NCBI GenBank assembly: GCA_049521895.1
Contig: JBEKOJ010000001.1
Span: forward strand, 418,717-482,716
DNA from: Candidatus Saccharimonadales bacterium
Lineage (GTDB): Bacteria > Patescibacteriota > Saccharimonadia > Saccharimonadales > UBA10212
DNA length: 64,000 nucleotides
Direction of reading: 5' to 3'
Shown in pieces: positions 4,002 through 52,602 of this stretch (its first letter is position 1; each line of letters opens with the position of its first letter). A program made the translations under genes and the position numbers. A model generated the notes under the pieces. The model did not search any database and was not told where the DNA came from. It worked only from the letters and a program-made list of their open reading frames with translations.

Positions 4002-5006
4002 TCAGGATTTGGTACGGGGCAAGTTGTCGGCTGCCCGGATGACGTTTTCGAACAAAGCGCAGACCGTCAGGGGGCCGACGCCGCCTTTTTCGGGAGTGAT
4101 TATTAGATCATCGCGTTGGTAAACTTCGGGGGCTAGATCACCGACGGTTTTGCCCGATTCGGAGGCCACGCCGGCATCGACCACCACGGCACCAGTTTTT
4201 ATCATGTCCGGATAAAGCACTGCCGGGCTACCAGTAGCTGTGATAATAACGTCGGCTTTCTTGGTATAGTCTGACAAATTTTTGACTTCGCGGCCGATAA
4301 CTTCAACCTCGTAGCCAGAGGCCTTAAGAATTTTTTCTAGCGGTGCGCCAACCAGCTTACCGCGGCCGACCAGTAAAATATGCTTGCCTGCCAGATCAAC
4401 CCCGTAGCCGGCTAGCAGCCACATAATCGCCATCGGCGTCGCCGGTTCAAACCAGGTTCCTCGCACCGTGACGTCCTGCCTTCTGGCGGAGCCAGAAGCA
4501 CCGTCGTCACTTAAGGTCCGCTGCGGCGTCAAAGACTGCGCTACTCCTTCACCGTATTTCATATACGACTCAGTCTGTTGCCCGTCTTTTCCTTGCACCG
4601 CACTCTTATGCGAGGCCCTGGATTTTGTCAAAGGTGGCCATGGTGCATCTGGGTCACCTAGGGCGTCCACGTCCTTTTGCGGTGCTACCAAATTAACTAT
4701 TTCATCTGTTTGGCTGGGATCTGTAAGCGGTAGTTGGACGATGATACTGTGTATGCTGTCGTCATTACTTAACTTGTTAAGTAATTTTGGCGCGTCTTTC
4801 TGTTGGAGCGTATGAATATCTACATCAATACCGACATCGGCGCCGTATTGCTTTTTAAGCCGGACGTAAGTATTGATAACCGGATCGTCTTTAACCTGTA
4901 CAATTGCCAGCTTGGGCCGTATGCCGCGCCCTCGCAGGCTGCGCACCTGTTTAGCGTGGCGCTCCTTGATAAAACCGGCCAGCTCTTGGCCATTAAGTAT
5001 TTTCAT
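4002..5006 (-). CDS. folD: bifunctional methylenetetrahydrofolate dehydrogenase/cyclohydrolase with a ~55-aa internal insertion
   Basis: 334 aa. Motifs IIVQLPL, KDVDA, PATP, GRGKLVGAPL and GGVGPLT are present. The spacer between KDVD and PxTP is ~72 aa versus ~17 in E. coli FolD as I recall it. Confidence 0.85.
   Translation of the reverse strand: MKILNGQELAGFIKERHAKQVRSLRGRGIRPKLAIVQVKDDPVINTYVRLKKQYGADVGIDVDIHTLQQKDAPKLLNKLSNDDSIHSIIVQLPLTDPSQTDEIVNLVAPQKDVDALGDPDAPWPPLTKSRASHKSAVQGKDGQQTESYMKYGEGVAQSLTPQRTLSDDGASGSARRQDVTVRGTWFEPATPMAIMWLLAGYGVDLAGKHILLVGRGKLVGAPLEKILKASGYEVEVIGREVKNLSDYTKKADVIITATGSPAVLYPDMIKTGAVVVDAGVASESGKTVGDLAPEVYQRDDLIITPEKGGVGPLTVCALFENVIRAADNLPRTKS
4764..4785. repeat. 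hairpin palindrome copy 1 (ATTACTTAAC-TT-GTTAAGTAAT), inside folD
   Basis: Read directly from the sequence: 10-2-10 dyad. It encodes LLNKLSN of FolD on the minus strand. Confidence 0.95.
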
Positions 5007-5014
5007 AGTTCATG

Positions 5015-5091
5015 TGGAGGGCCAGGAGGGACTCGAACCCTCGACATTCTGCTTAAGAGGCAGACGCTCTAACCAGCTGAGCTACTGGCCC
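5015..5091 (-). tRNA. tRNA-Lys (anticodon CTT)
   Basis: Cloverleaf folded by eye. Anticodon arm is TCTGC-CTCTTAA-GCAGA, T-loop is GGTTCGAGTCC, and CCA is encoded. Confidence 0.9.
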
Positions 5092-5156
5092 GCTTTTGGG
5101 CATCCGAATACTAGCACGCTCACCCCTGTTTTGTAAACCGATGATACAATTGCTTC

Positions 5157-5660
5157 ATGAGTAGGGACAAGACCAGCCTGAGGCAAAATTTGGTTTCAGC
5201 ACGGCTCAATATGTCGGCACAGGAAGTCCAAGCTAGGAGCCGCGCTATTGCCAATCAACTGATACGCAACGTGGATTGGGCAAACATCGGCAGGATGCAT
5301 ATTTATTCTTCGGTAACTAAATGGAACGAGGTGCAGACCGATCCGATCGCTGAATATGTACGGAGACAATGGCCAACAATTAAAGTTATACGCCCGCTGA
5401 TAAAAGCGGGCCAATTACTACCAAACCAGAAATTTGATCTGATAATCGTTCCGTGTCTGGGATTTGACGAAGAGTTGTACCGACTGGGCCTAGGTGGCGG
5501 GTTTTATGACCGTTTCCTGGTAAACCAGCCAAAAGCCTTAAAAATTGGACTGTGTTTTGCCAATGGATTTATAAAAGATGGCTTGCCCGACGAGCCACAC
5601 GATATTCCGCTAGATGTAATCGTCACTGAAGAGGATATAATTAAGGCCCATGATAGTTAA
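5157..5660 (+). CDS. 5-formyltetrahydrofolate cyclo-ligase
   Basis: 167 aa. The C-terminal motif LIIVPCLGFDEELYRLGLGGGFYDRFL is typical of the MTHFS family. It sits next to folD. Confidence 0.8.
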   Translation: MSRDKTSLRQNLVSARLNMSAQEVQARSRAIANQLIRNVDWANIGRMHIYSSVTKWNEVQTDPIAEYVRRQWPTIKVIRPLIKAGQLLPNQKFDLIIVPCLGFDEELYRLGLGGGFYDRFLVNQPKALKIGLCFANGFIKDGLPDEPHDIPLDVIVTEEDIIKAHDS

Positions 5661-6408
5661 GGCCATAAAAACCAGAAAAGTTACGGCTGGTTCAGGCACG
5701 CTCTTGGAACTGTTGGACGAATATCTTACTGAGCTTAAAGAGAACAGCGTCATTGCTATAACTTCTAAAGTAGCGGCCTTGTGTGAAGGTCGGATTGTAC
5801 CCAAAGACCAAGCGAACAAACAAGACTTAGTAGTTCGTGAGGCCGATTATTACTTGCCGAAAAACCTCAGTAAGTACGGTTTTAGTTTTACTATCATCCA
5901 TAACACGTTAGCGCCGGCAGCCGGAGTTGATGAATCTAACGGCAACGGTAACTATGTTTTGTGGCCCATCGACCCGCAAAAAACTGTTAATGAGGTACGG
6001 CATTACTTAAAGAAACGTTTTGGTCTAAGAGAGATCGGCGTAATTTTAACCGACAGTACTGCCCGCCCACTGCACTATGGTACTGAGGGGGTGGCCATCC
6101 GTTATAGTGGTTTCTCGCCCAGTAATAACTATATCGGTACACCGGACCTTTTTGGACGTACGCTGGAAGTCAGTATTTCGAATGTAGTTGATGCGTTGGC
6201 TTCGGCGGCTGTGGTAGTTATGGGTGAAGGCGCCGAACAGACTCCGATAGCCGTTATTTCTGACATCCCGTTCGTGGCTTTCCAAGACCATGATCCAACA
6301 CTAGAGGAGTTAAAGAAGTTTTACCTGGAGCATATGGAAGATGATTTATTTGAGCCTTTCCTACGCCAAATGGGTTGGCGTGAAGGCGGCCATCGCGGAA
6401 AAGGATAA
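5650..6408 (+). CDS. CofE-like gamma-glutamyl ligase family protein (putative folate/F420-type glutamate ligase)
   Basis: 252 aa. The call rests on family-like segments AITSKVAALCEGR, AGVDESN and VVVMGEGAEQTP, an 11-nt overlap with the upstream cyclo-ligase gene, and my recollection of the family. Confidence 0.6.
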   Translation: MIVKAIKTRKVTAGSGTLLELLDEYLTELKENSVIAITSKVAALCEGRIVPKDQANKQDLVVREADYYLPKNLSKYGFSFTIIHNTLAPAAGVDESNGNGNYVLWPIDPQKTVNEVRHYLKKRFGLREIGVILTDSTARPLHYGTEGVAIRYSGFSPSNNYIGTPDLFGRTLEVSISNVVDALASAAVVVMGEGAEQTPIAVISDIPFVAFQDHDPTLEELKKFYLEHMEDDLFEPFLRQMGWREGGHRGKG

Positions 6409-6485
6409 TGGTACCCCCGGCAAGACTTGAACTTGCGGCCTCTTGTTCCGAAGACAAGCGCTCTAATCCACTGAGCTACGGGGGC
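6409..6485 (-). tRNA. tRNA-Arg (anticodon TCG)
   Basis: Cloverleaf by eye. Anticodon arm is CTTGT-CTTCGGA-ACAAG. CCA is encoded. Confidence 0.9.
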
Positions 6486-6493
6486 CTAACACA

Positions 6494-6838
6494 CTACAGT
6501 ATAGAAGATAGTCCAGTGATTCGTTTATAAGTTCTGGTTCGATGACAATTTGCGCAGACCAATTCACAATTGGCGATTTCTTCTTCTAGCTTTTCAATGC
6601 TGCAATTTTCTATTAGATCGTTTATTGTCGCCGTTTTCTTACCTACGTGATCGAAGTCCATAACGTAGTAAGGATAATTTTTACCGCAGTCGAGGCATGG
6701 GATAACTTCTTTTATGAGATTGATCAGTTCTCTAATGTCTTTTTTTCTTTTTGCTGCCTTTTCAATATAATACTGCCGATTAGCATAGTAATGTCGACGG
6801 ATTGCGGCCCGGCTGTCTTCTATATCTTTGTAGGCCAC
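6494..6838 (-). CDS. HNH endonuclease-like protein
   Basis: 114 aa. The pattern CLDCG...DFDHV...CANCHR matches a Cys4/His-Me finger. Confidence 0.7.
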   Translation of the reverse strand: MAYKDIEDSRAAIRRHYYANRQYYIEKAAKRKKDIRELINLIKEVIPCLDCGKNYPYYVMDFDHVGKKTATINDLIENCSIEKLEEEIANCELVCANCHRTRTYKRITGLSSIL

Positions 6839-6937
6839 GATACCTAATATTTTATCATTTTTAAGGTGTTAATTGGCTATTTTAGCTAATTTTACAATGA
6901 TACAGCACGATTGACGAAGTTAGAACCGTCTTAGTTG

Positions 6938-7663
6938 CTAACTGCTACTTCTAAACCAGCCGTTTTTTGCAACCTTATTCCATATGAATTCGTATAAAAT
7001 CTGATTTCCCTCAGCGCTTAAGTGAAGGCGATCTTTACCGACATTTTGAAGGATCCTAGGCTCCTCGGTTGTATTTGCATAAACTGCACCAACTCTCTTA
7101 GCTGCATCTTGAAATATTTTTGCTACAACTTTTTCTCGTCTTTTTAGGATAGGTCTTAACCACCAGGGAAATATAGTGAGCGTTGACATGTCGCCGGGTC
7201 CCGCAATAACAATTTTAGGACTGTGTCTTTTCATTTTATCGACAAGCTCATAGCAGTGGTGCCGGAATTTAGTTGACGCAAAACCATGCAACACGTCATT
7301 CGACCCAACAATTAGCGCTATCAGGTCCCATCTGCCTTCAATTTGGTCGTTTTTAATATCCGTAATCCACTTACCAAAACCCGCTTCATTAAGATAGATA
7401 ACATGGTGGTTCTTGGCTAACTCATTGGCTATCTTGCTGCCTACTGCGTTGTCAAACTGCTTCATGCCGTGACCGGAGCCGGCACTGTCTCCTAGGACCA
7501 ACAGTTTAAATTTCGGATTTTTTGTATCGCCTAACTCAAAACGCCCTGCTTGATGCGTCTCGCTGTGGGCAAGCTCGTAAGTCCGGTTCAGTTTTGGATA
7601 GGCATAAACGACTGCCCACAAAAGTGCCAACAAAATAAGAACGAGGGCTATAAGAAGTATCAC
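6938..7663 (-). CDS. SGNH/GDSL-type hydrolase with N-terminal membrane anchor
   Basis: 241 aa. Has an N-terminal TM helix, block I LVLGDSAGSG, and GSNDV. Confidence 0.7.
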   Translation of the reverse strand: MILLIALVLILLALLWAVVYAYPKLNRTYELAHSETHQAGRFELGDTKNPKFKLLVLGDSAGSGHGMKQFDNAVGSKIANELAKNHHVIYLNEAGFGKWITDIKNDQIEGRWDLIALIVGSNDVLHGFASTKFRHHCYELVDKMKRHSPKIVIAGPGDMSTLTIFPWWLRPILKRREKVVAKIFQDAAKRVGAVYANTTEEPRILQNVGKDRLHLSAEGNQILYEFIWNKVAKNGWFRSSS

Positions 7664-7708
7664 CTGTTAATAATATCAAAATCTACACGCCTTATTATGG
7701 TTGTGCTT

Positions 7709-7785
7709 TGGTACGCGTGAAGGGATTCGAACCCCCGACCTTTGGTACCGGAAACCAACGCTCTATCCATCTGAGCTACACGCGC
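7709..7785 (-). tRNA. tRNA-Arg (anticodon CCG)
   Basis: Cloverleaf by eye. Anticodon arm is TTGGT-TTCCGGT-ACCAA. CCA is encoded. Confidence 0.9.
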
Positions 7786-7809
7786 TTAACAGAGGTTATT
7801 ATATCATTT

Positions 7810-8373: not shown

Positions 8374-8416
8374 TAGCGTTTATTGTATCACTACTTTTAG
8401 CCGTATAATTGACGTA

Positions 8417-10860: not shown

Positions 10861-12384
10861 ATGCAAGAAACAAACGAGAAAATCGGTCGTTTAATTTACC
10901 AGATCCGGCAAGAGCGCGGTTTAACGCAGTCGTCTTTTGCCAAAAAACTCGGTACCAGCCAGTCGGCTGTTAACCGGATTGAGCACGGCAGGCAAAATCT
11001 AAGCCTGGACACGCTAGGGCGCATCAGTGATGTACTTAATAAACAGATCATTAGCCTTGGCGAGGGTGGTATCAACCTGCGTGTAGAAGGCGGCCACGAG
11101 TTGCACGGCGAGATTACACTAAAAACCAGCAAGAACGCTGCTGTAGCTCTTTTATGCGCGAGCTTACTAAACCGAGGTATGACCCGCTTTAAATCTTTTC
11201 CACGCATTGAGGAAGTTTTTCGTATCATTGAAGTTCTGGAGAGCATCGGCGTACGGATCAGGTGGCTGAATGGCAATGATCTGGAAATCAAAGTGCCCGC
11301 CCAGCTCGACCTGGAAGCTATGAATAAAGAGTCGGCGCGTAAAACGCGTAGTGTACTAATGTTGCTGGGGCCGTTGATGCATCACCATTCCAGTTTTAAA
11401 ATCCCGTATGCCGGCGGCTGTAAGCTAGGCAGACGTACTGTGGCGCCACACCTATTTGCGCTGGAGCAATTTGGCGTTAACGTAATTGCCACAAGCGGGC
11501 ACTACAATGTGAGAGTTAAAAAGAAAGTTCCCCAGGAAAGAGTCGTGTTATATGAACAAGGTAATACCGTAACTAATAACGTCCTTATGGCCGCGGCGCT
11601 CACCAAAGGCACCACCGTTATTCAATCAGCCAGTGCCGATTACATGGTCCAGGACTTGTGCCACTTTCTAGCCAAACTTGGTGTTAAGATAGACGGCATC
11701 GGCTCACCGGTGCTGACAGTCGAAGGTGTCGGCTCCATAAAGAAAAATGTAACTTACACTCCAACCGAAGATCCGATTGAAGCAATGCTATTTATTGCCG
11801 CTGCCGTAACTACCAATTCGCAGCTGACTATCCGCAGGGTTCCACTCTACTGGATTGGCTTGGAACTTCTTAAGCTACACAAGATGGGGTTAAAGACAGA
11901 AATCAGCCCCACCTATAAAGCTGATAATGGTGTGGTTGATCTGGCTGACATAAAGGTCCATAAACACAATGGCGAACTAACTGCACTAGAAGAAAAATTG
12001 CACCCCAATCTTTGGCCCGGTATTAACCCTGATAATATTCCCTACTTTGTCCCGATTGCGGCTGTTTGCCGTGGTCGAACGGTTATCAACGACTGGATGT
12101 ACGAAAACCGGGCAATTTATTTTACGGAGATGACCAAAATCGGTATGAATATAGAGCTGGCTGACCCACACCGTCTGTATATAGAGGGGCCGACCAAGTT
12201 CAATAAAGCCGACGTAGTTTCACCACCAGCGCTCCGGCCGGCTAGTTTACTGTTGATTGGCATGCTAGCAGCCGATGGTGTCAGTATGCTTCGTAACGTT
12301 TACACCATCAACCGTGGCTATGAGGACTTGGCTGAGCGTCTCAATGGTTTGGGCGCCCATATCGAAGTCATCCACGAAGTCTAA
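10861..12384 (+). CDS. murA: UDP-N-acetylglucosamine 1-carboxyvinyltransferase fused to an N-terminal XRE-type HTH domain
   Basis: 507 aa. Residues 1-65 are HTH-like (GLTQSSFAKKLGTSQSAVNRIEHG). The remainder is an EPSP/MurA fold with the catalytic Cys context PYAGGCKLGRR. Confidence 0.85.
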   Translation: MQETNEKIGRLIYQIRQERGLTQSSFAKKLGTSQSAVNRIEHGRQNLSLDTLGRISDVLNKQIISLGEGGINLRVEGGHELHGEITLKTSKNAAVALLCASLLNRGMTRFKSFPRIEEVFRIIEVLESIGVRIRWLNGNDLEIKVPAQLDLEAMNKESARKTRSVLMLLGPLMHHHSSFKIPYAGGCKLGRRTVAPHLFALEQFGVNVIATSGHYNVRVKKKVPQERVVLYEQGNTVTNNVLMAAALTKGTTVIQSASADYMVQDLCHFLAKLGVKIDGIGSPVLTVEGVGSIKKNVTYTPTEDPIEAMLFIAAAVTTNSQLTIRRVPLYWIGLELLKLHKMGLKTEISPTYKADNGVVDLADIKVHKHNGELTALEEKLHPNLWPGINPDNIPYFVPIAAVCRGRTVINDWMYENRAIYFTEMTKIGMNIELADPHRLYIEGPTKFNKADVVSPPALRPASLLLIGMLAADGVSMLRNVYTINRGYEDLAERLNGLGAHIEVIHEV

Positions 12385-12406
12385 GATGTCGAGATAGTCC
12401 TAAATC

Positions 12407-12425
12407 TGATATAATCACCTCTGTT
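12407..12425 (+). promoter_or_regulatory. tRNA promoter: extended -10 TGATATAAT followed by conserved CACCTCTGTT
   Basis: TATAAT lies at 12410-12415. The same TGnTATAAT + ACCYCTGTT module recurs at 15150, 16641 and 44756 (minus strand). Confidence 0.6.
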
Positions 12426-12729: not shown

Positions 12730-12734
12730 ACAAA

Positions 12735-13693: not shown

Positions 13694-13704
13694 GCTGGTT
13701 ATAC

Positions 13705-14745
13705 CTAGCTTGTTAAGGTAAGAGCTATAAGGCCAAGAATGTATACGGCTAGAACTATTATCGAATCAACCCCCATACGAAAATAGATTCGCTTCGGTCG
13801 AACCACCAGACCAATTATGTAGATTCCCGTTAGTAGTACGCCTAGTGCTGCAAACCATATATCGCTAGTCGACGCATTCTTTAAGATAGAGTGGCCGGCA
13901 ATCAAATCACAGATTACAAACAGTGCCGGCATGAAGGCATTGCCACCGAAAATATCGCTCATAGCTAGTTTGTAGTCCCCCAGGTCTATGGAGCCGAACC
14001 CCGTACTTATGTTTGGCAAAGCACCAGCAAAAGCGATGAAAGTCGCGGCAAATAAACCTGTGCCAATTCCCCAGGCGTTCGCCAACTGCGTACCGCTAGA
14101 TTGCAATCCAACTCCGGCAACCAAAGTAGCTAGTGCAGCAACTCCAAAAATGAGGAAAATCTTCGAACTGGAGGCACTTTTCAAAGATGGATGGTTAATC
14201 ATAGCCCGTCTCTCATGGTGTTCTCGCCCGGGATGAGCATGAATTGCTTCGCTACGCCAGGGTAAACCCTTTCTGGCCCGAAATATTAACCATAGGCCAA
14301 AAATCCACAGTACAAAAATTAAAGCCGAGGACAGGCTTACTCGCGAATAAATAACCACTGGCGTTTTAATGGCAATAATCGAGGCAACAGCAACCAATAT
14401 GACAATTACTGCTTCCAGAACTAGGGTTAAAGAAGCGGCCGAGAACGTCAGCGGACTGTCAACTTTCATACGAGCATCAAGCAGGCTAATAACTACCGTC
14501 TGAATAGCAATTCCGCCCAGTAAAGTGCCAATGATTACATCGTAATGATGGGCCAGCGCCGCCGACACCACAATGGCGGTTTCTGGCAAACTGGTGGCTA
14601 TACCTAGAATTAACAGGCCGCCAAAAGCGCTCCCAAGCTTATATTTAGCATCTATGGCATCGGTAGTTCGTGTAAGCCATATTCCTGCCACCCAAATCAT
14701 TGCTGCAGAGATTAAAAACTCTAATATCAAACTCAGGTGCGGCAT
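13705..14745 (-). CDS. sodium/calcium exchanger (CaCA) family membrane protein
   Basis: 346 aa, polytopic. Contains the alpha-repeat motif GIATSLPE and a second repeat GALPN. Confidence 0.75.
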   Translation of the reverse strand: MPHLSLILEFLISAAMIWVAGIWLTRTTDAIDAKYKLGSAFGGLLILGIATSLPETAIVVSAALAHHYDVIIGTLLGGIAIQTVVISLLDARMKVDSPLTFSAASLTLVLEAVIVILVAVASIIAIKTPVVIYSRVSLSSALIFVLWIFGLWLIFRARKGLPWRSEAIHAHPGREHHERRAMINHPSLKSASSSKIFLIFGVAALATLVAGVGLQSSGTQLANAWGIGTGLFAATFIAFAGALPNISTGFGSIDLGDYKLAMSDIFGGNAFMPALFVICDLIAGHSILKNASTSDIWFAALGVLLTGIYIIGLVVRPKRIYFRMGVDSIIVLAVYILGLIALTLTS

Positions 14746-14852: not shown

Positions 14853-15152
14853 ATGTCCGTAGCTGAAGGGCTCAAGCCAAATTGGTGGGAAGTGCAAGCT
14901 TTGGGTATGGTGGAGCCAATCGAGATTGTGCTCGGTGCCATGGTATGTGATGGATGCAGGCAGGAGATAAGAGCACATAGGCTAAACCCCGAGTTTTTTG
15001 AGCTCGGACCGCCCTTGGAGTCTACGAGAATACTATGCGGCGCTAGCGAAAAAAAGGTTGCTCCGCTCCCGCATGGAACGAGTATTACCATTTATGATTT
15101 TTCAGTGCAACGTAAGCCCGACGAAGCTGTGGTGCCTCTAGGCGTACTCTGA
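14853..15152 (+). CDS. hypothetical protein
   Basis: 99-aa ORF in an otherwise empty interval with no recognisable motif. Its stop overlaps the tRNA-His promoter. Confidence 0.3.
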   Translation: MSVAEGLKPNWWEVQALGMVEPIEIVLGAMVCDGCRQEIRAHRLNPEFFELGPPLESTRILCGASEKKVAPLPHGTSITIYDFSVQRKPDEAVVPLGVL

Positions 15153-15170
15153 TATAATTACCTCTGTTCT
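15150..15170 (+). promoter_or_regulatory. tRNA promoter module TGATATAAT + TACCTCTGTT
   Basis: TATAAT lies at 15153-15158. It has the same architecture as the other tRNA promoters in the window. Confidence 0.6.
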
Positions 15171-15299
15171 TTCAGATTATTTTTCAAATTTTCAAAGCGG
15201 CGGTCTACTAACCGTTTGAAAAATTGAGAGGAGGAGCATAGCGCTAAGCCGAAGCTTTTGCGAAAAAGCAAAACGAGGCCGGCGCGCAAGCTCCGACGA
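15165..15299 (+). ncRNA. L-type structured leader, copy 1 (precedes tRNA-His)
   Basis: Contains an A/T-rich 12-bp hairpin (15185-15226), a purine block GAGAGGAGG and a closing helix GGAGC/GCTCC. It ends in CTCCGACGA directly at the tRNA 5' end. Homologous copies lie at 44612, 47933 and 55360. Confidence 0.55.
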
Positions 15300-16581: not shown

Positions 16582-16640
16582 TATTGTAGCTTATTTGAAA
16601 AGCGGTACACTCGGGGCGGGTAGTTCATCTATCTGTTTTC

Positions 16641-16660
16641 TGCTATAATTACCCCTGTTG
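16641..16660 (+). promoter_or_regulatory. tRNA promoter module TGCTATAAT + TACCCCTGTT
   Basis: TATAAT lies at 16644-16649. Confidence 0.6.
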
Positions 16661-19713: not shown

Positions 19714-20097
19714 TTATTTGCTCGGGGGTGGCGTAGCAGCTGGGGCACCGTATTTGGGCAGCGCGAGACGGTCACTCAGACCAGCGCTTAGGGCCTGAAG
19801 GCCTTTGTTAACCCAATCCTCGCCAGCAGTAGCAACAATTGGGATATCATAGCTGTACGCCAGAGCATTAGCGACTGTCAGGCCGATGCGCAGCCCGGTA
19901 AAACTGCCTGGGCCTTTAAAGCACACTATGCCCTCAAGCTGGTCTATGGAAATACTTAACTTGTTAAGTATTTCCTGAATCTTAATATGAATAGTCGCAG
20001 CCAGTTGGCGGTCGGCTGGCCATGCTATATATGCCAATTGCTGGTCGCCATCGTAAATTCCTAGCTCGGCCCCAGGACTATCGGTTTTTAGTGTCAA
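19714..20097 (-). CDS. tsaB: tRNA t6A biosynthesis protein TsaB (short form)
   Basis: 127 aa. Carries the GPGSFTGLRIG motif and sits directly downstream of tsaE. Confidence 0.75.
   Translation of the reverse strand: MTLKTDSPGAELGIYDGDQQLAYIAWPADRQLAATIHIKIQEILNKLSISIDQLEGIVCFKGPGSFTGLRIGLTVANALAYSYDIPIVATAGEDWVNKGLQALSAGLSDRLALPKYGAPAATPPPSK
19950..19973. repeat. hairpin palindrome copy 2 (AAATACTTAAC-TT-GTTAAGTATTT), inside tsaB
   Basis: 11-2-11 dyad read directly from the sequence. It encodes EILNKLSIS. Confidence 0.95.
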
Positions 20098-22766: not shown

Positions 22767-23230
22767 TGAATCCGGCGGTCTATTAATATCTGTAGTGTTT
22801 TAATCACACCCTCTATAATTGCCAAGATAGCGCCGCCAACTACCGCACCTGTATAGAATCGTTGAGATCTACCGTACGCTTTCAAAGAATCATCTACTAA
22901 ACCAGCGGGGTATATAAAAAACTTCTTACCTATAAAGTGGCGGCCTTTAATAGAAGTTACATATAAAGTCCAGTTACTACTAAGCCAATCTATGTATCCG
23001 TGTTCCTTAGATGCAACTAATATTGCGGCAACAGTACTCTCGCTTGGTTTTCTGAGTTTCCGAGATTTTATGTAGTCTTGAGTGAGGGCGAGCAATGCCT
23101 CGTTTTGTGCCTTGAAGGTTTGGGTGTGAGAAAGTATCTCGTACCTATTAGAATCTATGTACCTTACTAACTTGTACATATCTTTCATCTCTGCCATACG
23201 CTGAATTATACCTCTTGTCTGCGCAATCAT
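22763..23230 (-). CDS. hypothetical IS passenger protein with C-terminal hydrophobic helix
   Basis: 155 aa. Its start overlaps the transposase stop by 4 nt (ATGA), implying co-translation with the transposase. Confidence 0.55.
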   Translation of the reverse strand: MIAQTRGIIQRMAEMKDMYKLVRYIDSNRYEILSHTQTFKAQNEALLALTQDYIKSRKLRKPSESTVAAILVASKEHGYIDWLSSNWTLYVTSIKGRHFIGKKFFIYPAGLVDDSLKAYGRSQRFYTGAVVGGAILAIIEGVIKTLQILIDRRIH

Positions 23231-24111
23231 GTCTTACTCCGTGCAGATATGCTTACCTTGTCCATCAAAGCCCAAAACATAGGCTGAAAATCGTTTCTAT
23301 GGCTCTGCCTAAATGCATATTCGTTCACGTAGTTTTGTAAATGCTGAGAGCTAACGTGTCTATATACGCCCCGCATTCCACGCTTCATGTTACCCCAAAA
23401 GTTCTCAATGTTTTGGGTGTGAGTATCACCATCAACGTAATGCCTTTTGCCATGCTGGATAGTCTCATGGTAATAGCCTTTTTTATAAAGGCGTTTGTAG
23501 GAGCGGTGCTCATCAGAATAGATGGTAGACTCTCGCTGGATGTTCTCTTCAACTTCCCGTAATAACACTAACTCACCAGCAGACTTAACGTGCTTGGCTC
23601 TGACTACTCCGCCACGCTCGGCCATACCAAAGACCACAGGATTATCCTTCCTTGACTTATGAGGCTTACGAATGGTAGAGCGCTTTAGCGGGTCGGCGTG
23701 CATATAAGTTTCATCAATCTCAATTTCACCGTATAATCGCTCGCCATCATCACTCATCATAGATCTAATCTGGTGAAACATCCGCCACGCGGTTTTGTAA
23801 GTTACCCCTGTTTCACGCTCTAACTGTTTGGCTGAGATTCCGGCTCTAGTAGCGGCCATAATGAATATAGCCTCAAACCATATAGTTAAAGGTGTACTAG
23901 ATTTGTGGAAGATGGTATTTGCAGTAGGAGATGTAGAACCACCACAGTATTCGCAAGCATAAACTTTCATACTCCTTCGTTTGTGGTGAGGAGTTATCTT
24001 CTCACACTTCTTGCAAGTTATGCCCTCTGGGTACAGATATTCTTTCAACCATTCCAGACAAGCATCCTCATTTGGGAAATCTATCTTTAACTGTTGTCGT
24101 GTATATTTCAT
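23227..24111 (-). CDS. IS1595-family (ISXO2-like) DDE transposase
   Basis: 294 aa. Has an N-terminal Cys-rich zinc ribbon (CKKCE...CEYCG), an HTH (GISAKQLERETGVTYKTAWRM), EIDETY and DEHRSY acidic motifs. Confidence 0.9.
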   Translation of the reverse strand: MKYTRQQLKIDFPNEDACLEWLKEYLYPEGITCKKCEKITPHHKRRSMKVYACEYCGGSTSPTANTIFHKSSTPLTIWFEAIFIMAATRAGISAKQLERETGVTYKTAWRMFHQIRSMMSDDGERLYGEIEIDETYMHADPLKRSTIRKPHKSRKDNPVVFGMAERGGVVRAKHVKSAGELVLLREVEENIQRESTIYSDEHRSYKRLYKKGYYHETIQHGKRHYVDGDTHTQNIENFWGNMKRGMRGVYRHVSSQHLQNYVNEYAFRQSHRNDFQPMFWALMDKVSISARSKT

Positions 24112-24342: not shown

Positions 24343-24870
24343 ATGTTAAGGTTAAGCGCTAGCCTTAGAAACCAGCCGGTACTGAGTTTAAGGTCCGGCG
24401 ACCAAATCACTACGGCCATCGAACCGATTATTAATCCGCATAACCTAAAAATAGTCGGCTGGTGGTGTAAAGCGCCCGCTGGCAAAGAACTGGTATTACT
24501 AGCAGACAACGTGCGCGAGATTATGCCAAATGGCCTGGCCGTGAACGACGATGCCGACCTTAGCGACCGGAAAGATTTAGTCCGTCACGATGATATTCTA
24601 AAAATCCGTTTCCAGCTGCTAGATAAACTGGTCAAAACCAAGCGTCAAAAGTTGGGTAAAGTCAGCGACTTTAGCTATAACGACGGCTTGTTCGTGCAAA
24701 AACTATACGTAGCGCGCAGTCTGGCCAAAGTTTTCTCCAAAGATGAAACTTTACTGATTGACCGAACGCAGATTTTGGAAGTTACTGATAATTATATTTT
24801 AGTACGCGATAGTGATGTAAAGGCAACCGAAGAAGAGCTGGCTGGTGCGCTGGGTACGGTTGCCGCTTAG
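24343..24870 (+). CDS. PRC-barrel-like domain protein
   Basis: 175 aa with two repeats of a PRC-barrel-like pattern (VLSLRSGDQI..., GKVSDFSYND...). The assignment is tentative. Confidence 0.5.
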   Translation: MLRLSASLRNQPVLSLRSGDQITTAIEPIINPHNLKIVGWWCKAPAGKELVLLADNVREIMPNGLAVNDDADLSDRKDLVRHDDILKIRFQLLDKLVKTKRQKLGKVSDFSYNDGLFVQKLYVARSLAKVFSKDETLLIDRTQILEVTDNYILVRDSDVKATEEELAGALGTVAA

Positions 24871-24897: not shown

Positions 24898-24921
24898 AAT
24901 TACTTAACTTGTTAAGTAATT
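24898..24921. repeat. hairpin palindrome copy 3 (AATTACTTAAC-TT-GTTAAGTAATT), intergenic
   Basis: 11-2-11 dyad lying between the convergent stops of 24343-24870 and recX. Confidence 0.95.
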
Positions 24922-24925: not shown

Positions 24926-25525
24926 TTAGGTATTTTTTAGAGTTCGGTTAATCAATTCGTAATCGAACCCTTGTTGGGCTAAGTATTGTTTAAGCTTAAG
25001 AGGATCGTTTTGATAGCGTAATAGTTTGGTTTTCTTAGCGATTAAGCTTTCCAGGCGTTTTTTCTCATTATTCTCCGAGCCAGCTAGAACTTCATCTGCC
25101 ACTTTCCTATTGATCCCTTTCGTGAAAAGCCCACTGCGGATCGCGCGGTTACTTTTGCCCCGGCGAGTCTGCAAATCTACGAACCAGATAGCAAATTTGG
25201 CGTCATCAAGATATTTTTTTTGACTAAAATCATTGATTAAATTTCTTATCTGCTCGGGCGCGGCTTTTTTTCGGTAGAGATAATCCTTAAACTCACGCTC
25301 CGAGTGCGGCCGGTTAAGCAGCCACTCCAGCGCCCAGGCTTTTAGCTTGCCGTCCTCAGAAATTTTTTTGAATTTTTTAACCTCGGCTACGCTCAGCTCG
25401 TCGTTTTGTTTAACTTTATATCTAATCAGTTCGTCCAGGCTAAGCGAGAAGCTATACTTATTATCTACAAAGACGCTCACCCGCTGTGAATTTTTAACTT
25501 GCTGCTCAAGGGCGGTTATTTTCAT
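24926..25525 (-). CDS. recX: recombination regulator RecX
   Basis: 199 aa with three-helix repeat pattern. It lies in the recA gene cluster, two genes downstream. Confidence 0.8.
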   Translation of the reverse strand: MKITALEQQVKNSQRVSVFVDNKYSFSLSLDELIRYKVKQNDELSVAEVKKFKKISEDGKLKAWALEWLLNRPHSEREFKDYLYRKKAAPEQIRNLINDFSQKKYLDDAKFAIWFVDLQTRRGKSNRAIRSGLFTKGINRKVADEVLAGSENNEKKRLESLIAKKTKLLRYQNDPLKLKQYLAQQGFDYELINRTLKNT

Positions 25526-38696: not shown

Positions 38697-38718
38697 AATA
38701 CTTAACTTGTTAAGTATT
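38697..38718. repeat. hairpin palindrome copy 4 (AATACTTAAC-TT-GTTAAGTATT), intergenic
   Basis: 10-2-10 dyad lying between the pil operon end and the convergent stop of 38723-39379. Confidence 0.95.
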
Positions 38719-38722: not shown

Positions 38723-39379
38723 CTACAGGCCCTCTTTGCCGGCTTCGCTTTCGGCATAACTTTGCCGGGCTTCCAAAATACGCTCGGCATAGATGTCTGG
38801 AGTTGGACACCAAGGAAAAACAAAATTATCCTCTTCGCCAGCGGTTTCTATAGTCAATGTCCCGTAACCAAAAATAGTAGCCAAAAAACCCTTGTGCTCG
38901 GCTGTTACGTCCTGCACATTAGACATGGAAAGCCTTGAGATCTTACGGATAAATAGACCTCTTTGGATAACTTGTATCAAACTCCTATTACTGACAACCA
39001 GCCGGCTCTGCCGGTAAATATAGGTTGCTACCAGCAGCACCAATGCCACTAGCGCCACTACTATGATTGCAATAGCTATCATCAGTGTGTAGGCCTGCCC
39101 GGAGAGGTTATCCAAAAAGCTCGGCGCTAAAACTTTTATCAAAACCACTACGGCGATTAAGCCGGCCAAGGCCTCGAGGTAAATCGCTATAATGCCAATC
39201 GGGTGGCGGTGCACAATGGTAACTATGCGCTCGCCAGGCTCCAACATATCGCTATTTGATTTGGATATCGGGGGAGACGATGGCTGTAGATTAACAGGTG
39301 GTGGAGATGGCACCGGTATTTGAGCAGGGGGTGGCGGAACTGGTACCGGAGGTGTTGGCATGGGAGTCTCAGGCTGCAT
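38723..39379 (-). CDS. membrane protein with bacterial PH (YdbT/bPH_2-like) domain and Pro-rich N-terminus
   Basis: 218 aa. The segment GERIVTIVHRHPIGII followed by two TM helices and a C-terminal beta-rich domain resembles the bPH_2 family. Confidence 0.6.
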   Translation of the reverse strand: MQPETPMPTPPVPVPPPPAQIPVPSPPPVNLQPSSPPISKSNSDMLEPGERIVTIVHRHPIGIIAIYLEALAGLIAVVVLIKVLAPSFLDNLSGQAYTLMIAIAIIVVALVALVLLVATYIYRQSRLVVSNRSLIQVIQRGLFIRKISRLSMSNVQDVTAEHKGFLATIFGYGTLTIETAGEEDNFVFPWCPTPDIYAERILEARQSYAESEAGKEGL

Positions 39380-47774: not shown

Positions 47775-47823
47775 CCGCTCACTACGTTCGCTCAACGAGG
47801 TTCTCGCCCTTCTCCGAACCATG

Positions 47824-47850: not shown

Positions 47851-47857
47851 TTTTTCA

Positions 47858-47932
47858 TGGTAGCGGGGAGAGGACTCGAACCTCTGACCTCGTGGTTATG
47901 AGCCACGCGAGCTGCCACTGCTCCACCCCGCG
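47858..47932 (-). tRNA. initiator tRNA-fMet (anticodon CAT)
   Basis: 5' CGCGGGGTGGAGCAG as in bacterial initiators. Position 1:72 is a C/U mismatch. CCA is encoded. Confidence 0.85.
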
Positions 47933-48085
47933 TCGTTGGAGCAAGCCACCAGCTTGCAACGACGAACAGCTAAACTTACGTTTATTGTTCGTGTCTTCAG
48001 CTTTATGCTGCTCCTCCTCTCAAATTTTCAAACCGTGATCAGACCCCCGCTTTGAAAATTTGTGGAAGACCAAGTACATATTCTA
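47933..48085 (-). ncRNA. L-type structured leader, copy 2 (precedes tRNA-fMet)
   Basis: On the minus strand it has a perfect 12-bp A/T hairpin (48021-48062), the purine block GAGAGGAGGAGCA and a closing helix GGAGCA/TGCTCC. It ends in CTCCAACGA at the tRNA 5' end. A -10-like TATAAC lies at 48095-48090. Confidence 0.55.
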
Positions 48086-48104
48086 ATCTGTTATAAGGTG
48101 TTTG

Positions 48105-48569: not shown

Positions 48570-48576
48570 CTTAAGC

Positions 48577-48652
48577 TGGTGGGGATGCCTGGACTTGAAC
48601 CAGGGACCAATCGGTTATGAGCCGACTGCTCTAACCACTGAGCTACATCCCC
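48577..48652 (-). tRNA. tRNA with anticodon CAT (elongator Met or Ile2)
   Basis: Cloverleaf by eye. Anticodon arm is GTCGG-CTCATAA-CCGAT. CCA is encoded. Confidence 0.85.
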
Positions 48653-48687
48653 GTATACCAAGTATAACAGATAGGGAAGGTCTGGTT

Positions 48688-49629
48688 TTAGTCTAAATAA
48701 CTTAAGAGTTCTTGTAAGCTTCTAGCTGCCATTAGCTTTTCGCGTAGTTCTTTGGCATCGTCAAAGCCGTTTATATAGATCTTGCAGAATTTATTAAGAG
48801 TTTCTACCCTCCGCTCACCATTTTTCCAAGTTCTCGCAAATAGCCTGACGTGTTTGCGATATAGCTCTATCTTCTGCTCTTTACCAAAGCTTGCCCACGG
48901 GCTGGTTCTGGCAAATACGAACGGATCATTGAATACTCCGCGACCGATCATTACACCGTCCAGCTCATATTTTTTGGCCAGCTTCTCGGCTTGCTGGCGG
49001 CTCATAACATTGCCGTTACCAACAATCAGCGTAGAAGGGCAGAGGGCATCGCGCGTTTCCCGGGCTTGGCCGACTAAATCCCAATTAGCCGGAACTTTAG
49101 AGAGTTGCTTAGCTGTCCGGCCATGAATACTTAACATGTTAAGTTTTTTCGTCAGCAGGAACTCGATCCAGCCCATATCTACTGTTGTAAATCCTACGCG
49201 CGTTTTGATGCTAACAGGGAAGTCCTTGCCCACCCCCTCTCTTGTTGCATCAATAATTTCCGCCGCTAGCTCTCTGTTGTTCATCAGTGCTGCGCAAGCG
49301 CCATTTTTGATAACTGTTTTGACTGGGCACCCCATGTTAAGGTCTATCCCATCAAACCCCATGGCTTTTATTTCGGTTGCGGTTTTTTTAAAATTTTCGG
49401 GTTTTAGCCCCCACAACTGGGCAAAAATCGGCCGCTCTTTATCTGTAAAACGCAATTTTGGCAGCAGCTTTTCCCGCCCTGGGCTCTGTAGGCCATCAAC
49501 GTTTACAAATTCAGTGATAAACAGATCCGGCTTGGCACAATCGGCTACGATCTGGCGGAAAACTGTGTCCGTAACATCGTCCATTGGCGCCAACACCAAA
49601 AACGGCCTCGGTAATTGATTAACATTCAT
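48688..49629 (-). CDS. dus: tRNA-dihydrouridine synthase
   Basis: 313 aa with LAPMDDVTD, DLNMGCP (catalytic Cys) and HGRT motifs. Confidence 0.85.
   Translation of the reverse strand: MNVNQLPRPFLVLAPMDDVTDTVFRQIVADCAKPDLFITEFVNVDGLQSPGREKLLPKLRFTDKERPIFAQLWGLKPENFKKTATEIKAMGFDGIDLNMGCPVKTVIKNGACAALMNNRELAAEIIDATREGVGKDFPVSIKTRVGFTTVDMGWIEFLLTKKLNMLSIHGRTAKQLSKVPANWDLVGQARETRDALCPSTLIVGNGNVMSRQQAEKLAKKYELDGVMIGRGVFNDPFVFARTSPWASFGKEQKIELYRKHVRLFARTWKNGERRVETLNKFCKIYINGFDDAKELREKLMAARSLQELLSYLD
49129..49144. repeat. variant of the hairpin palindrome (ACTTAACATGTTAAGT, perfect 16-mer), inside dus
   Basis: It has the same arms as the main motif with a CATG centre. It encodes KLNMLS. Confidence 0.8.
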
Positions 49630-49643
49630 AATATTTAGAAAAA

Positions 49644-50069
49644 CTAGTAAGTTTTTCGGGCATCCTCCACGTTTGGAGGCGGCCCGTCTGCGTTTATTAG
49701 TTGTCTAGATCCTAAACCCCTTCTGGTTTTTTTCCTCTTTGCCTTAGGCCTGCTAGCCAGCACTCTCCTAGCAGCACGCCCTATCAAGATATCCTCGTCT
49801 TCCGGTGTCAAAGTTTTAGATCTTTCGCGAGTACCAAATGCGGTAGTTTGACCCTGTTGATCCACAATACCACGTCTAAAATCTATGTCTTTCTGTATGT
49901 CATCTACGACTGGTCTTATTTTACTAGGTGGCAAGTGGGGCTTTGGCGGCAGCGGCTCGACTGGTATTGATGGTTCAAGCTCCGGTATGGGTATTGCAGA
50001 TTTTATAGGTAGCCGGCCTTGGCCATCATCGGGCTGTGCTGCATAGTCACTCTCTGGATCCTTTAACAT
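49644..50069 (-). CDS. hypothetical Pro/Arg-rich protein
   Basis: 141-aa ORF of low complexity, positioned between ruvA and dus. Confidence 0.4.
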   Translation of the reverse strand: MLKDPESDYAAQPDDGQGRLPIKSAIPIPELEPSIPVEPLPPKPHLPPSKIRPVVDDIQKDIDFRRGIVDQQGQTTAFGTRERSKTLTPEDEDILIGRAARRVLASRPKAKRKKTRRGLGSRQLINADGPPPNVEDARKTY

Positions 50070-50086
50070 ATTTATATCCTAACATA

Positions 50087-50659
50087 CTAGGTTTTGAGGG
50101 CGGCTTTTATGCGGTCTTCAGGCGAGAGTTTGGAATCAACTTTACTGAGGGCTTGGGCGGCATCTTGGACAGAGTAACCTAAAGCTACTAATCCCTGCAG
50201 AGCTTCGTCGTTGGGATTGGCACTGGCAGTTAGAAAATCTGTAGCATCTTGGCTGGCGGTCAGGCCAACTTTGTCCTTCAGATCCACCACAACCCGTTCG
50301 GCCACCCTTTTGCCCACGCCGTTAGCTTGAGTAATAAACTTGGTGTCGCCGGCAGCAATTGCCTGGCGTACATGCGACAAACTCGCAATACTCATAATGG
50401 CCAACGCCATCTTGGGGCCTACTCCGTTAACGCTCAGCAACTGTTCAAAAAGCAGCTTAGCTGGGACTTCACGAAAGCCAAATAAATCATGGGCGTTATC
50501 CCGGATATGTTCATAAATATAAAGTTTGGCTGGCTTACCAGTTTCTAGCGCGCCAAAATCTTCAAAACTGACGTTCAGGCCATAGCCAACGCCGGCACAC
50601 TCCAAAATTACAGTATCGCCAAGTTTTTCGGTTACCTTACCTTCCAAAACTGCAATCAT
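50087..50659 (-). CDS. ruvA: Holliday junction DNA helicase subunit RuvA
   Basis: 190 aa with an OB N-terminus and HhH motifs (LLSVNGVGPKMA, ANGVGKRVAERV). Confidence 0.9.
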   Translation of the reverse strand: MIAVLEGKVTEKLGDTVILECAGVGYGLNVSFEDFGALETGKPAKLYIYEHIRDNAHDLFGFREVPAKLLFEQLLSVNGVGPKMALAIMSIASLSHVRQAIAAGDTKFITQANGVGKRVAERVVVDLKDKVGLTASQDATDFLTASANPNDEALQGLVALGYSVQDAAQALSKVDSKLSPEDRIKAALKT

Positions 50660-50663
50660 GGTC

Positions 50664-51143
50664 TTATTCTACACGAGATGTCATAGCATGGGTTATAGCG
50701 GCGGCTAAGGCGTCGGCGCAATCGTCCGGTTTTGGTACTTCTTTCAGACCCAATATTACCCGCACCATTTCTTGCATTTGTTTTTTATCGGCACGACCGT
50801 ACCCGGTAAGCGATTGCTTGATTTGCAGCGGCGTGTACTCGGCAATCTCTAAACCAGCTAGCTTACCTGCTAGCATAGCCACGCCGCGAGCGTGGCTGAC
50901 ACTAATTGCCGTAGTAATATTTTGGGCGAAAAAAAGCTTTTCTATCACCATCACGGTCGGTTTAGTGTGTGCTATTTCGCTAGCTAAGTGGCGATAAATC
51001 TCAATCAACCTCTCGTCCAGGGGCTGGTGGACATTTGTGCGGATCACCCCTCCGTCAATTAATTTAGCTTTGCCGCCCGCAGAGGTTTCTATAACCCCGA
51101 ACCCTAAAATCCCCGTCCCTGGATCAATTCCGATGATCCTCAT
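50664..51143 (-). CDS. ruvC: crossover junction endodeoxyribonuclease RuvC
   Basis: Starts MRIIGIDPGTG (catalytic Asp). The ATG overlaps the upstream stop (ATGA), so the longer ORF-track start at 51236 is rejected. Confidence 0.9.
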   Translation of the reverse strand: MRIIGIDPGTGILGFGVIETSAGGKAKLIDGGVIRTNVHQPLDERLIEIYRHLASEIAHTKPTVMVIEKLFFAQNITTAISVSHARGVAMLAGKLAGLEIAEYTPLQIKQSLTGYGRADKKQMQEMVRVILGLKEVPKPDDCADALAAAITHAMTSRVE

Positions 51144-51958
51144 CTGTATTCTTCGGTTATTGGCTGGATGATGTCCAAAATCTCTTTGTGCATATCCGGC
51201 GCAGCAACCAAAACGCCGTTTATATCCTCGTCCCATCTCGGGACCTCTTCACCAAAAATATCTGTGACTTTTGCCCCGCTCTCCTGGGCAATCAAACAAC
51301 CGGCGGCTAAATCCCATGGGTTAATCACACTAGTGATACAGGCATCAAAATATCCAGCTCCAACCATTGGCAAGATGTAGGCAATCGGGTGGTCAAAGAT
51401 GGTGAACCCACCCTTTTTACCAAATGCCGCTGCCAGTTTGCCATCGATGTCGTTACTCTTAAAAACTGCTTGGTTGACGCCGCCAACTACCCAAGCTGAT
51501 ATTACCTTTTTCCCTCGATGAACGTGGTTGCTTAAATCCAATTTGTTGCCATTCTCGTAAGCACCACCCCCTTCTACAGCCCAAAAAATCCGCTCGGTAT
51601 TGGGGTCGGACACTACTCCAAGTTTTGGTTGACCGTCTTCCACGAAGGCAACGCTAAACGCAAAAACCGGCACACCACGACCAAAATTCGGTGTGCCATC
51701 CAGCGGATCAACTATCCACAGCTGCTCGCTGTTTAGCATATAGCTTTCTTCTTCACCTAAGACCCCGTGATCGGGAAACTTTCGCTTGACCCTGGAGATT
51801 ACCATTGAGTTGATCTCAGTGTCCGCTAATGTGACGGGTGTGAGATCTTCCTTGATGTCCATCTGGAGGGATTTTGTAAGAAAATGCTTGAGCATAATCT
51901 TTCCGGCTTCTTCGGCTAACTCTTTTGCAAATTCTAAATAGTTCTTCGGGTCATTCAT
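51140..51958 (-). CDS. inositol monophosphatase family protein
   Basis: 272 aa with WIVDPLDGTPNF and the GEE metal-site motif. Confidence 0.85.
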   Translation of the reverse strand: MNDPKNYLEFAKELAEEAGKIMLKHFLTKSLQMDIKEDLTPVTLADTEINSMVISRVKRKFPDHGVLGEEESYMLNSEQLWIVDPLDGTPNFGRGVPVFAFSVAFVEDGQPKLGVVSDPNTERIFWAVEGGGAYENGNKLDLSNHVHRGKKVISAWVVGGVNQAVFKSNDIDGKLAAAFGKKGGFTIFDHPIAYILPMVGAGYFDACITSVINPWDLAAGCLIAQESGAKVTDIFGEEVPRWDEDINGVLVAAPDMHKEILDIIQPITEEYR

Positions 51959-52602
51959 TTTAAAAATTCTTCTCTAGTTCCGTCTATTAATATAACCTGT
52001 CCATCCTCCAGTGGCTTGTATGAAATCTTGTGCTTTTTAAAATACTGGATTGATTTATCGGCCTCTGCACCAAACCAATCAGACTTGCAGTGTGGAACAA
52101 TCATAAAATCGACCAGACCTAATCCATCCCAGATAATTTCTTTGTTAGGATAATTATCTGGAACCGCATCCGGCTGTGGTCTATCGCCGTATTCAATACC
52201 GCGCAGTGACGGGGCGGTAATACAGGCTCCGGCACTCCAACCACCGTAAAGAATTTTATCTTCTTTTAGCAATTTTTTAAGGATCATATCGAGGCTGCTG
52301 GCTCTCATAGCTCTGCGCAAAATGAAAGTATTTCCGCCTGATGACCAGAGTGAGCCAAAATTACTTAACTTGTTAAGTAATTTCTCCGATTCACCGAAAT
52401 AATCGCGCAGGTCTATTTCTTCAAATTCAAATCCGGCGGCTTCAAACATCTTTTTCTTTTCTGGGGTACTCCAATTTCTCTCCTCTGGAGACAAATCATC
52501 TTGGGCATTCTTTAAATAGGCAGCTTTTTTGTTCTTGCCCGCCAGTTTTGCGGCGACTTCAGGGTAATTTCCAAGGTCTTGTGATGACAAAAATAGGCGC
52601 AT
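51955..52602 (-). CDS. peptidase E-like (S51 family) protein
   Basis: 215 aa with SSGGNTF and GWSAGA (nucleophile Ser) motifs. Confidence 0.7.
   Translation of the reverse strand: MRLFLSSQDLGNYPEVAAKLAGKNKKAAYLKNAQDDLSPEERNWSTPEKKKMFEAAGFEFEEIDLRDYFGESEKLLNKLSNFGSLWSSGGNTFILRRAMRASSLDMILKKLLKEDKILYGGWSAGACITAPSLRGIEYGDRPQPDAVPDNYPNKEIIWDGLGLVDFMIVPHCKSDWFGAEADKSIQYFKKHKISYKPLEDGQVILIDGTREEFLK
52358..52383. repeat. hairpin palindrome copy 5 (AAATTACTTAAC-TT-GTTAAGTAATTT), inside the S51 peptidase gene
   Basis: 12-2-12 dyad. It encodes EKLLNKLSNF. Confidence 0.95.

Follow-up and report, generated by a model that had tools for sequence, protein, structure and literature searches.

A perfect palindromic dyad dispersed within and between genes of Saccharibacteria, possibly a site array for a dimeric DNA-binding protein

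A short palindrome recurs within and between genes of a Saccharibacteria chromosome and is shared with relatives of the same clade. In a 64-kb stretch (the window) of a 769,618-bp peat-metagenome contig (JGI 3300038418 Ga0427942_000004, ~418.7–482.7 kb), the exact 18-mer TACTTAACTTGTTAAGTA, which is TACTTAAC-TT-GTTAAGTA, is present in five copies and is accompanied by one variant. The repeated unit is the whole dyad, with a centre of two A/T pairs (WW), arms set one helical turn apart and a sequence conserved at the level of DNA; its copies have a characteristic placement relative to genes, turn over by substitution and are dispersed genome-wide. We tentatively favour the possibility, itself short of probable, that the dyad forms a binding-site array for a conserved dimeric protein that binds double-stranded DNA. 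The sites of the window are given below, with the arms as left arm + centre + right arm.

4764–4785 (core 4766–4783), arms 10+2+10: exact copy inside folD (4002–5006, minus strand).
19948–19975 (core 19953–19970), arms 13+2+13: exact copy inside a tsaB-like gene (19714–20097, minus strand).
24898–24921 (core 24901–24918), arms 11+2+11: exact copy in a 55-nt convergent spacer between a PRC-barrel-like gene (24343–24870, plus strand) and recX (24926–25525, minus strand).
38697–38718 (core 38699–38716), arms 10+2+10: exact intergenic copy, 6 nt past the stop of a bPH_2 gene (38723–39379, minus strand) and 3' of the type IV pilus operon (plus strand).
49128–49145: variant TACTTAAC-AT-GTTAAGTt (TACTTAACATGTTAAGTt) inside dus (48688–49629, minus strand).
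52358–52383 (core 52362–52379), arms 12+2+12: exact copy inside a peptidase S51 gene (51955–52602, minus strand).

These positions, read from the sequence, bear out the five exact cores and one variant reported by an earlier sequence-only reading of the window, and the arm lengths of 10–12 nt given there hold for four copies, the exception being the copy at 19948–19975, where the arms are 13 nt and not 11 nt long. The variant differs by its AT centre and one arm mismatch. The four genic copies, variant included, all lie in minus-strand genes (folD, the tsaB-like gene, dus and peptidase S51), and both intergenic copies are found where genes converge (PRC-like/recX and pilus operon/bPH_2). Chance had been excluded in that reading, and 100 dinucleotide-preserving shuffles of the window likewise gave no match at ≤2 mismatches. 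It was also right that the motif is not the tip of a longer repeat: the flanks past the arms are unrelated between copies, and 31-nt stretches of the copies are only 68–84% identical, with the identity coming from the core. Two further relatives of the dyad with four mismatches, at 62653–62670 (TACTTAACATGCCAAGGA) and 13702–13719 (TACCTAGCTTGTTAAGGT), are either decayed copies or chance matches. The window otherwise encodes RNase Y, TsaB/E, ComEC, a set of type IV pilus proteins, RecA/RecX, RuvABC and 12 dispersed tRNAs, a gene content that, like the matches in public genomes, points to Candidatus Saccharibacteria.

The statistics on the anatomy of the element are based on 235 unique sites pooled. 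In the window, TACTTAAC occurs eight times, six of them within dyads, and GTTAAGTA occurs five times, all within dyads; lone half-sites show no excess there, and since half-sites are not enriched alone, the repeated unit is the whole palindrome. Among exact-arm sites whose centres the search pattern did not fix in advance, 8 have TT/AA, 5 have TA and 3 have AT, and no centre contains G/C; the dyad centre is WW and not an asymmetric TT. The non-contacted centres of helix-turn-helix (HTH) operators, for example that of the 434 repressor, show the same A/T-only behavior. Inside genes the centre is a codon position, at which AA gives Lys, TT gives Leu and AT gives Met, while TA would give a TAG stop, and by sense the genic sites comprise 112 AA, 24 TT and 1 AT. 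Both these counts and the apparent TT polarity of the window arise because the centre is a codon position: TT lies on the + strand in 5/5 exact copies, and three of the five lie in genes of the minus strand, whose reading turns the centre into the codon AAG (Lys). The constant orientation noted in the sequence-only reading is therefore correct within the window but is no feature of the element, its polarity following the codon in genes, and two intergenic sites in the valS region of the same contig have opposite polarity.

The 8+2+8 layout places equivalent arm positions ~10 bp apart, which is one helical turn. Beyond the arms, the consensus of the left flank is rich in A and that of the right flank in T, and the element approximates AAW-TACTTAAC-WW-GTTAAGTA-WTT. 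The first flank pair is complementary in 5/5 exact window copies (T..A three times and A..T twice), as had been observed before, and the proposal that symmetry is kept past the core is upheld across the pooled sites, where complementarity exceeds a shuffled-flank control at pairs 1–4 of intergenic sites (z = 4.6, 6.0, 5.3, and 3.1, respectively) and at pair 1 of genic sites (z = 4.4). A compensatory A·T → T·A flank change is also seen between two relatives, each ~81% identical to the window in the neighboring protein. G·T flank pairs are depleted (13 observed vs 27 expected at pairs 3–5) and Watson-Crick pairs are enriched, and the 11-bp RNA stem of the dyad is weak (-6.5 kcal/mol). Together, flank symmetry, G·T depletion and the weak stem favor a symmetric DNA site over an RNA stem.

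Each strand of the dyad has only one stop-free frame, and all genic sites use it, encoding (I/L)LNKLS(N/I/K) or LNLLS. In the window, the copies in folD (read on the folD strand) and peptidase S51 encode L-L-N-K-L-S-N, the tsaB-like copy encodes I-L-N-K-L-S-I and the dus variant encodes L-N-M-L-S. The host genes have no common theme and include recX, valS, folD, glyA, tsaB, rluB, an iscS-like gene, apbE, gatB, rnhB, murI, a histidine kinase gene, a glycosyltransferase gene, gdh, dus, and the S51 gene. Sites in other frames persist via the minimal TAA-removing change GTTAAG → GTCAAG (YLTSQV); this one-arm variant was considered as the evolution of a hairpin tolerant of G·U pairs and was rejected, being a coding effect in which the TAA stop of the other frame is removed. 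Orthologues of the folD site carry the exact motif in at least six other species. Among the sequence blocks fetched via an exact match, L152 and L195 contain homologues of peptidase S51 (60% and 77% identity), and L110, L150, L200, and L205 contain homologues of the genes flanking the copy at 38697–38718. The FolD open reading frame itself (334 aa; 4002–5006, minus strand) has ~70 residues between its two Pfam domains, longer than the usual linker.

The constraint on DNA is evident in valS. The valS gene of the window organism, reached via the ValRS homologue P0378, lies at 589–612 kb of the same contig, and its site is the exact 18-mer both there and in L256 and matches 17/18 in L257, the latter two loci having been chosen without reference to the motif. 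A motif-compatible peptide is present at this position in 84 of 120 ValRS homologues (70%; 64–79% identical to the query). AT-centred copies like that in dus also recur outside the window, for example as ILNMLSI in 8/120 ValRS homologues. As counted from the codon table, ILNKLSI has ~2,600 synonymous encodings, of which one yields the motif, so that the exact or near-exact site in the face of these possible encodings places the constraint on DNA; the selection or drive at the DNA level proposed by the sequence-only reading is supported. Turnover of genic sites proceeds by substitution without indels. For example, the tsaB site is restricted to the window's subgroup: it is present in 3/17 aligned orthologues (the window, L031, and L053), and in the remaining 14 an unrelated sequence of equal length takes its place. 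Similarly, a site internal to recX is not found in the window's subgroup; a class-wide recX site was considered and rejected, because the peptide occurs in only 1/150 diverse RecX representatives and the site belongs to one subgroup. The recX gene of JACOTW01 (L030) contains two dyads 93 nt apart, at 1523–1540 in the TT sense (LLNLLSN) and at 1616–1633 in the AA sense (LLNKLSN).

Among the pooled sites, 137/235 are genic and 98/235 are intergenic. Compared with an even spread per base, convergent junctions are enriched 17.8-fold in sites, tandem spacers 3.6-fold and divergent spacers 1.4-fold, and coding DNA stands at 0.68-fold. Convergent junctions hold 35 sites vs 6 for divergent ones (241 vs 248 junctions), and 16/22 sites in tandem spacers lie in the quarter adjoining the upstream stop. 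At the junction of recX and the PRC-like gene, the entire spacer of L145 and L196 is the palindrome, with both stop codons within the stem, and in L031 the two genes overlap and no site is present at the junction. In L120, the region just past the window end (731–2110) contains two tandem guanylate-kinase paralogues upstream of hrcA-grpE-dnaK, and a dyad variant with two mismatches lies 5 nt past the stop of the second paralogue.

The motif is also enriched well outside the window and is common to relatives, so that a lack of enrichment there, which the earlier reading had named as refuting its proposal, is not borne out. A scan of 185,579 species-representative genomes matched at least 110 blocks, and ~90% of the matches listed are metagenome-assembled genomes of Saccharibacteria or Saccharimonadales from many assemblies; a scan of JGI metagenomes gave at least 118 stretches with the motif, and IMG/VR gave only 3 matches in 2.9 million viral contigs. 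On the contig of the window, the 22.9-kb valS stretch, 106–130 kb past the window, has three exact sites; valS itself holds one, another occupies a convergent junction, and the third, with 16-nt perfect arms, lies at the 3' end of a gene. The window genome therefore has 8 exact sites in ~100 kb (~1 per 12 kb), which span at least 190 kb of contig. Over the window and its extensions (77.5 kb) the sites are spaced more evenly than a random arrangement would give [P(max gap ≤ 16.9 kb) = 0.0026], by a test that was picked after the data were seen. Copy number varies widely in relatives: 44 kb of the L256/L247 species contain a single site, that in valS, 22.6 kb of L257 lack any exact site, and on Ga0105238_10000042 five sites, of which three are exact and two are near variants, follow one another at consecutive gene junctions within 5 kb. 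Fetched site-bearing blocks contain 16 additional exact-arm sites in 1.48 Mb (~1 per 92 kb) and 41 near variants with 1–2 arm mismatches, and the density around sites in relatives is 1 per 36–92 kb.

Homologues of window genes are present in 28–44% of site-bearing blocks. A special cluster of sites in the window region was considered and rejected, as the density is equally high >100 kb away in the window genome; the excess of window genes accordingly reflects old orthologous sites in low-copy relatives. The IS1595 transposase was tried as a route to sample other parts of the genome and was abandoned, since it is single-copy and every contig with the protein shows the same locus; its gene (23227–24111, minus strand) lies between the recX neighborhood and the gene of an LTD-domain protein. 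In ERR599062_bin.104 (labelled "uncultured bacterium"; L027 ~6340–6390 and L050 ~2255–2305), the 18-mer lies within a longer nested palindrome, GTTACTTAACTTGTTACTTAACTTGTTAAGTAACAAGTTAAGTAAC, which appears to be a different element sharing the core by descent or chance.

The reading that we tentatively prefer is that of sites for a dimer-binding protein. A conserved homodimeric, sequence-specific DNA-binding protein of the Saccharibacteria clade would read the double-stranded dyad, one monomer per 8-bp arm; with arm centres about one helical turn apart, both arms would face the same side of the helix, and the two central A/T pairs would be left uncontacted, their deformability being the sole requirement. 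The sites would form a chromosome-wide array following the logic of parS, NBS, SBS or matS, in which the protein marks or organizes the chromosome and does not regulate promoters. The least costly positions would be right after stop codons, especially between convergent genes, or in the single stop-free frame, and because the genome is ~92% coding, the sites sit at such least-cost places. The dimeric reader, its action inside the cell and the outcome of binding are what we infer; an intracellular array is preferred because the palindrome, WW centre, helical-turn geometry, copy number, and per-site conservation are typical of arrays.

Known arrays of this kind (parS/ParB, NBS/Noc, SBS/SlmA, matS/MatP, and ram/RacA) consist of 12–16-bp palindromes read by dimers. 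The dyad resembles them in being a palindrome (here 18–24 bp) with tens of copies per chromosome and no promoter association, in being mostly genic because the genome is dense, and in the conservation of individual sites at orthologous positions, and its density, ~1 per 12 kb in the window genome and 1 per 36–92 kb around sites in relatives, matches theirs. Unlike them, it has an unrelated sequence with arms split by a 2-bp WW spacer, is not regionally confined in the window genome, varies widely in copy number between relatives and shows strong enrichment at gene 3' ends; the surroundings of dyad sites yielded no homologue of ParB, Noc, SlmA or MatP. With respect to ParB itself, the dyad sequence differs from the parS consensus, and canonical parS (TGTTNCACGTGAAACA) is absent from the window (≤3 mismatches) and from 1.54 Mb of fetched DNA (≤1 mismatch). 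Neither dnaA nor parB was found in the window, whose gene tables list no parA, parB or dnaA. In site-bearing blocks dnaA is present in only 3/228; no parA/parB was seen near dnaA, and dyad sites are not clustered beside parAB in the vicinity of oriC. Several species have a conserved site or variant ~2.5 kb upstream of dnaA, and in one relative (P0092 route) a site in a region matching folD-glyA is ~137 kb from dnaA. P0038, a DnaA homologue found via locus L054, was tried as the DnaA of the window organism and belongs to another species.

Several observations weigh against this reading. No candidate reader protein was identified; the 175-aa conserved neighbor of recX was tried in this role and dropped, having no Pfam/NCBIfam match and looking like a PRC barrel by eye. 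The wide copy-number differences between relatives are unusual for chromosome-organizing sites, and regional clustering is weak or absent in the window genome. The flank covariation keeps half-sites identical, which independent recognition of half-sites does not predict, and it needs an extra assumption such as palindrome-perfecting template switching or the use of a hairpin. In addition, the ~18-fold convergent enrichment and the hugging of upstream stops in long tandem spacers exceed what simple least-cost placement requires.

A second reading, the one put forward first in the sequence-only reading, compares the dyad with the DNA uptake sequences (DUS) of Neisseriaceae and the uptake signal sequences (USS) of Pasteurellaceae. 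Under it, a dimeric surface receptor of the type IV pilus/ComEC system would prefer DNA with the dyad, and biased uptake followed by recombination would drive the motif, as a tag of self-recognition, to all positions of the genome that tolerate it; we regard this as possible and doubtful. DUS and USS are 9–12-bp non-palindromic single units at ~1 per kb, which form hairpins only from inverted pairs and accumulate inside genes by substitution in an open frame. The dyad is like them in being specific to one clade, in lying within genes in tolerated frames, where it accumulates by substitution in the sole open frame, in its strong parking at gene 3' ends and convergent junctions as hairpin-forming repeats, and in its even spacing (no gap >17 kb in 77.5 kb) and near-absence from viral contigs, with the three IMG/VR matches. 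Copy-number variation between lineages is what a drive of varying strength would give, and the host group is naturally competent, the window itself encoding PilB, PilC, PilM, pilins, and ComEC. A tag of this kind explains the lineage-specific expansion, even spacing, gene-end parking, and viral near-absence better than an array does.

The likeness ends at the unit and its density. The dyad is a perfect 18–24-bp palindrome whose half-sites are not enriched alone, and not a single non-palindromic unit, whereas in every DUS or USS known to us the unit is not palindromic; and with ~1 copy per 12 kb or less, its density is 10-fold (window genome) to ~100-fold (relatives) below that of DUS/USS. Many relatives have only a few copies, and those with low copy number still keep single sites, for example in valS. 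No receptor is known, and both the receptor and the uptake bias are putative. The analogy thus fails on the palindromic unit and on density but remains a rival in the form of a tag read by a dimer, and an alternative named in that reading, sites bound by a dimeric protein in an array, accounts for the anatomy no less well. Saccharibacteria show comEC-dependent natural competence in two oral representatives, and their transformation was reported without mention of an uptake sequence (PMC10633639). In the literature searched, no published description of the motif, of an uptake sequence or of a genome-wide palindrome in Saccharibacteria was found. More doubtful still, in our view, is that the dyad represents the first case outside Proteobacteria of a sequence for DNA uptake or self-recognition, a palindrome read by a dimeric pilus/ComEC receptor. 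The dyad is also comparable to cyanobacterial HIP1 (GCGATCGC), an over-represented and clade-specific palindrome in and between genes, the function of which is not established; unlike the dyad, HIP1 is 8 bp long and occurs at ~1 per kb, so that the 18–24-bp dyad is >10-fold rarer.

Third, the dyad may act as a single-strand hairpin at transcript 3' ends, either as a bidirectional terminator or as an mRNA-stabilizing hairpin, possibly bound by a factor, with genic copies as tolerated by-products or attenuators; this is unlikely. Intergenic copies do have the form of A3–5 + stem + T3–5, the order of enrichment (convergent, tandem, then divergent spacers) and the position of most tandem-spacer sites beside the upstream stop are in line with transcript ends, and flank complementarity lengthens the stem by 1–4 or more pairs of variable sequence (z = 3–6), one site having 16-nt perfect arms. 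GC-rich classical terminators are, moreover, not in excess in the window (23 vs 20.3 in shuffles). However, ~60% of sites are genic, some of them with conservation between species, the variable stem is depleted of G·T pairs and does not tolerate them, the stem is weak, and the strand preference is gone once coding is accounted for; nor would a structural hairpin require its 16-nt stem sequence to be invariant. The dyad matches no Rfam family, only tRNAs reaching the gathering score in the window, and a terminator consensus scanner run on 20–40 kb of the window did not call the two intergenic dyads. Among the alternatives of the sequence-only reading the RNA hairpin fits worst, and as an RNA structure it is the weakest of the readings considered.

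Fourth, a selfish or mutationally propagated palindromic micro-repeat, REP/REPIN-like or hairpin-templated and without host benefit, would be copied to new places by a hairpin-recognizing enzyme or by template switching, which we consider improbable. The recX junction resembles a clean ~20-bp insertion when the overlap in L031 is set against the palindromic spacer of L145 and L196, and the dense local runs at successive gene junctions, the wide copy-number differences between relatives and the mutual identity of the arms, with their perfect extension, point the same way. Repetitive extragenic palindromic sequences (REPs) and bacterial interspersed mosaic elements (BIMEs) are likewise short, hairpin-capable palindromes at gene 3' ends and convergent junctions with variable copy number. 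REPs, however, lie outside genes, are imperfect and do not extend past a species or genus, and the dyad is perfect, ~60% intragenic in frame and invariant in its core across the whole clade. Its genic copies arise without indels, orthologous positions are kept across species with widely diverged proteins, no Y1_Tnp (RAYT) family transposase appears in the Pfam tables of ~190 kb of annotated neighborhoods, and IS1595, the sole transposase of the window, is single-copy and bears no relation to the sites. A crossover site of a serine recombinase, similar in its arms and central dinucleotide, was dropped because dozens of direct and inverse copies in essential genes would scramble the genome.

Several neighboring features were recorded beside the dyad. 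The MurA gene (10861–12384, plus strand; 507 aa) carries an N-terminal XRE-type HTH_3/HTH_31 domain, and this HTH-MurA fusion is conserved at 64–81% identity in many Saccharibacteria loci; a second enzyme fusion in the same genome, an HTH-HAD hydrolase (282 aa; L253 12928–13776), is convergent with valS. Two conserved families of short sequences lie near tRNA genes, CAAATTTTCAAAGCGG...TTGAAAAATTGAGAGGAGGA and TCTGATATAATTACCTCTGTT, the latter containing TATAAT, at 15177–15238 (plus), 48009–48062 (minus), 55427–55485 (minus), 12386–12425, 15129–15168, and 16620–16659; they resemble tRNA promoters or leaders. A large serine recombinase (Resolvase + Recombinase + Zn_ribbon_recom, 587 aa; L254/L255 14842–16605), ~595 kb on the contig, adjoins a run of hypothetical genes next to valS, and its gene is not called in the JGI copy (L253). 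The recombinase and the hypothetical genes are probably an integrated element, and no dyad site occurs inside this ~9-kb stretch.

Within the candidate phyla radiation, Saccharibacteria have been studied best; they are naturally transformable and rely on type IV pili, and to our knowledge no genome-wide signal acting in cis has been described in their DNA. The dyad stays exact while the surrounding genes diverge, and it dictates a peptide in housekeeping enzymes, which implies a conserved sequence-specific reader. Whether the reader is a chromosome organizer, as we tentatively prefer, or an uptake receptor, the dyad offers a concrete bait for pulldown. It is also a simple variable for transformation constructs and could improve the genetics of the hard-to-handle Saccharibacteria. 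If the dyad were an uptake tag, these epibionts, bathed in host DNA, could distinguish the DNA of their kin, meant for recombination, from host DNA, which would serve as food.

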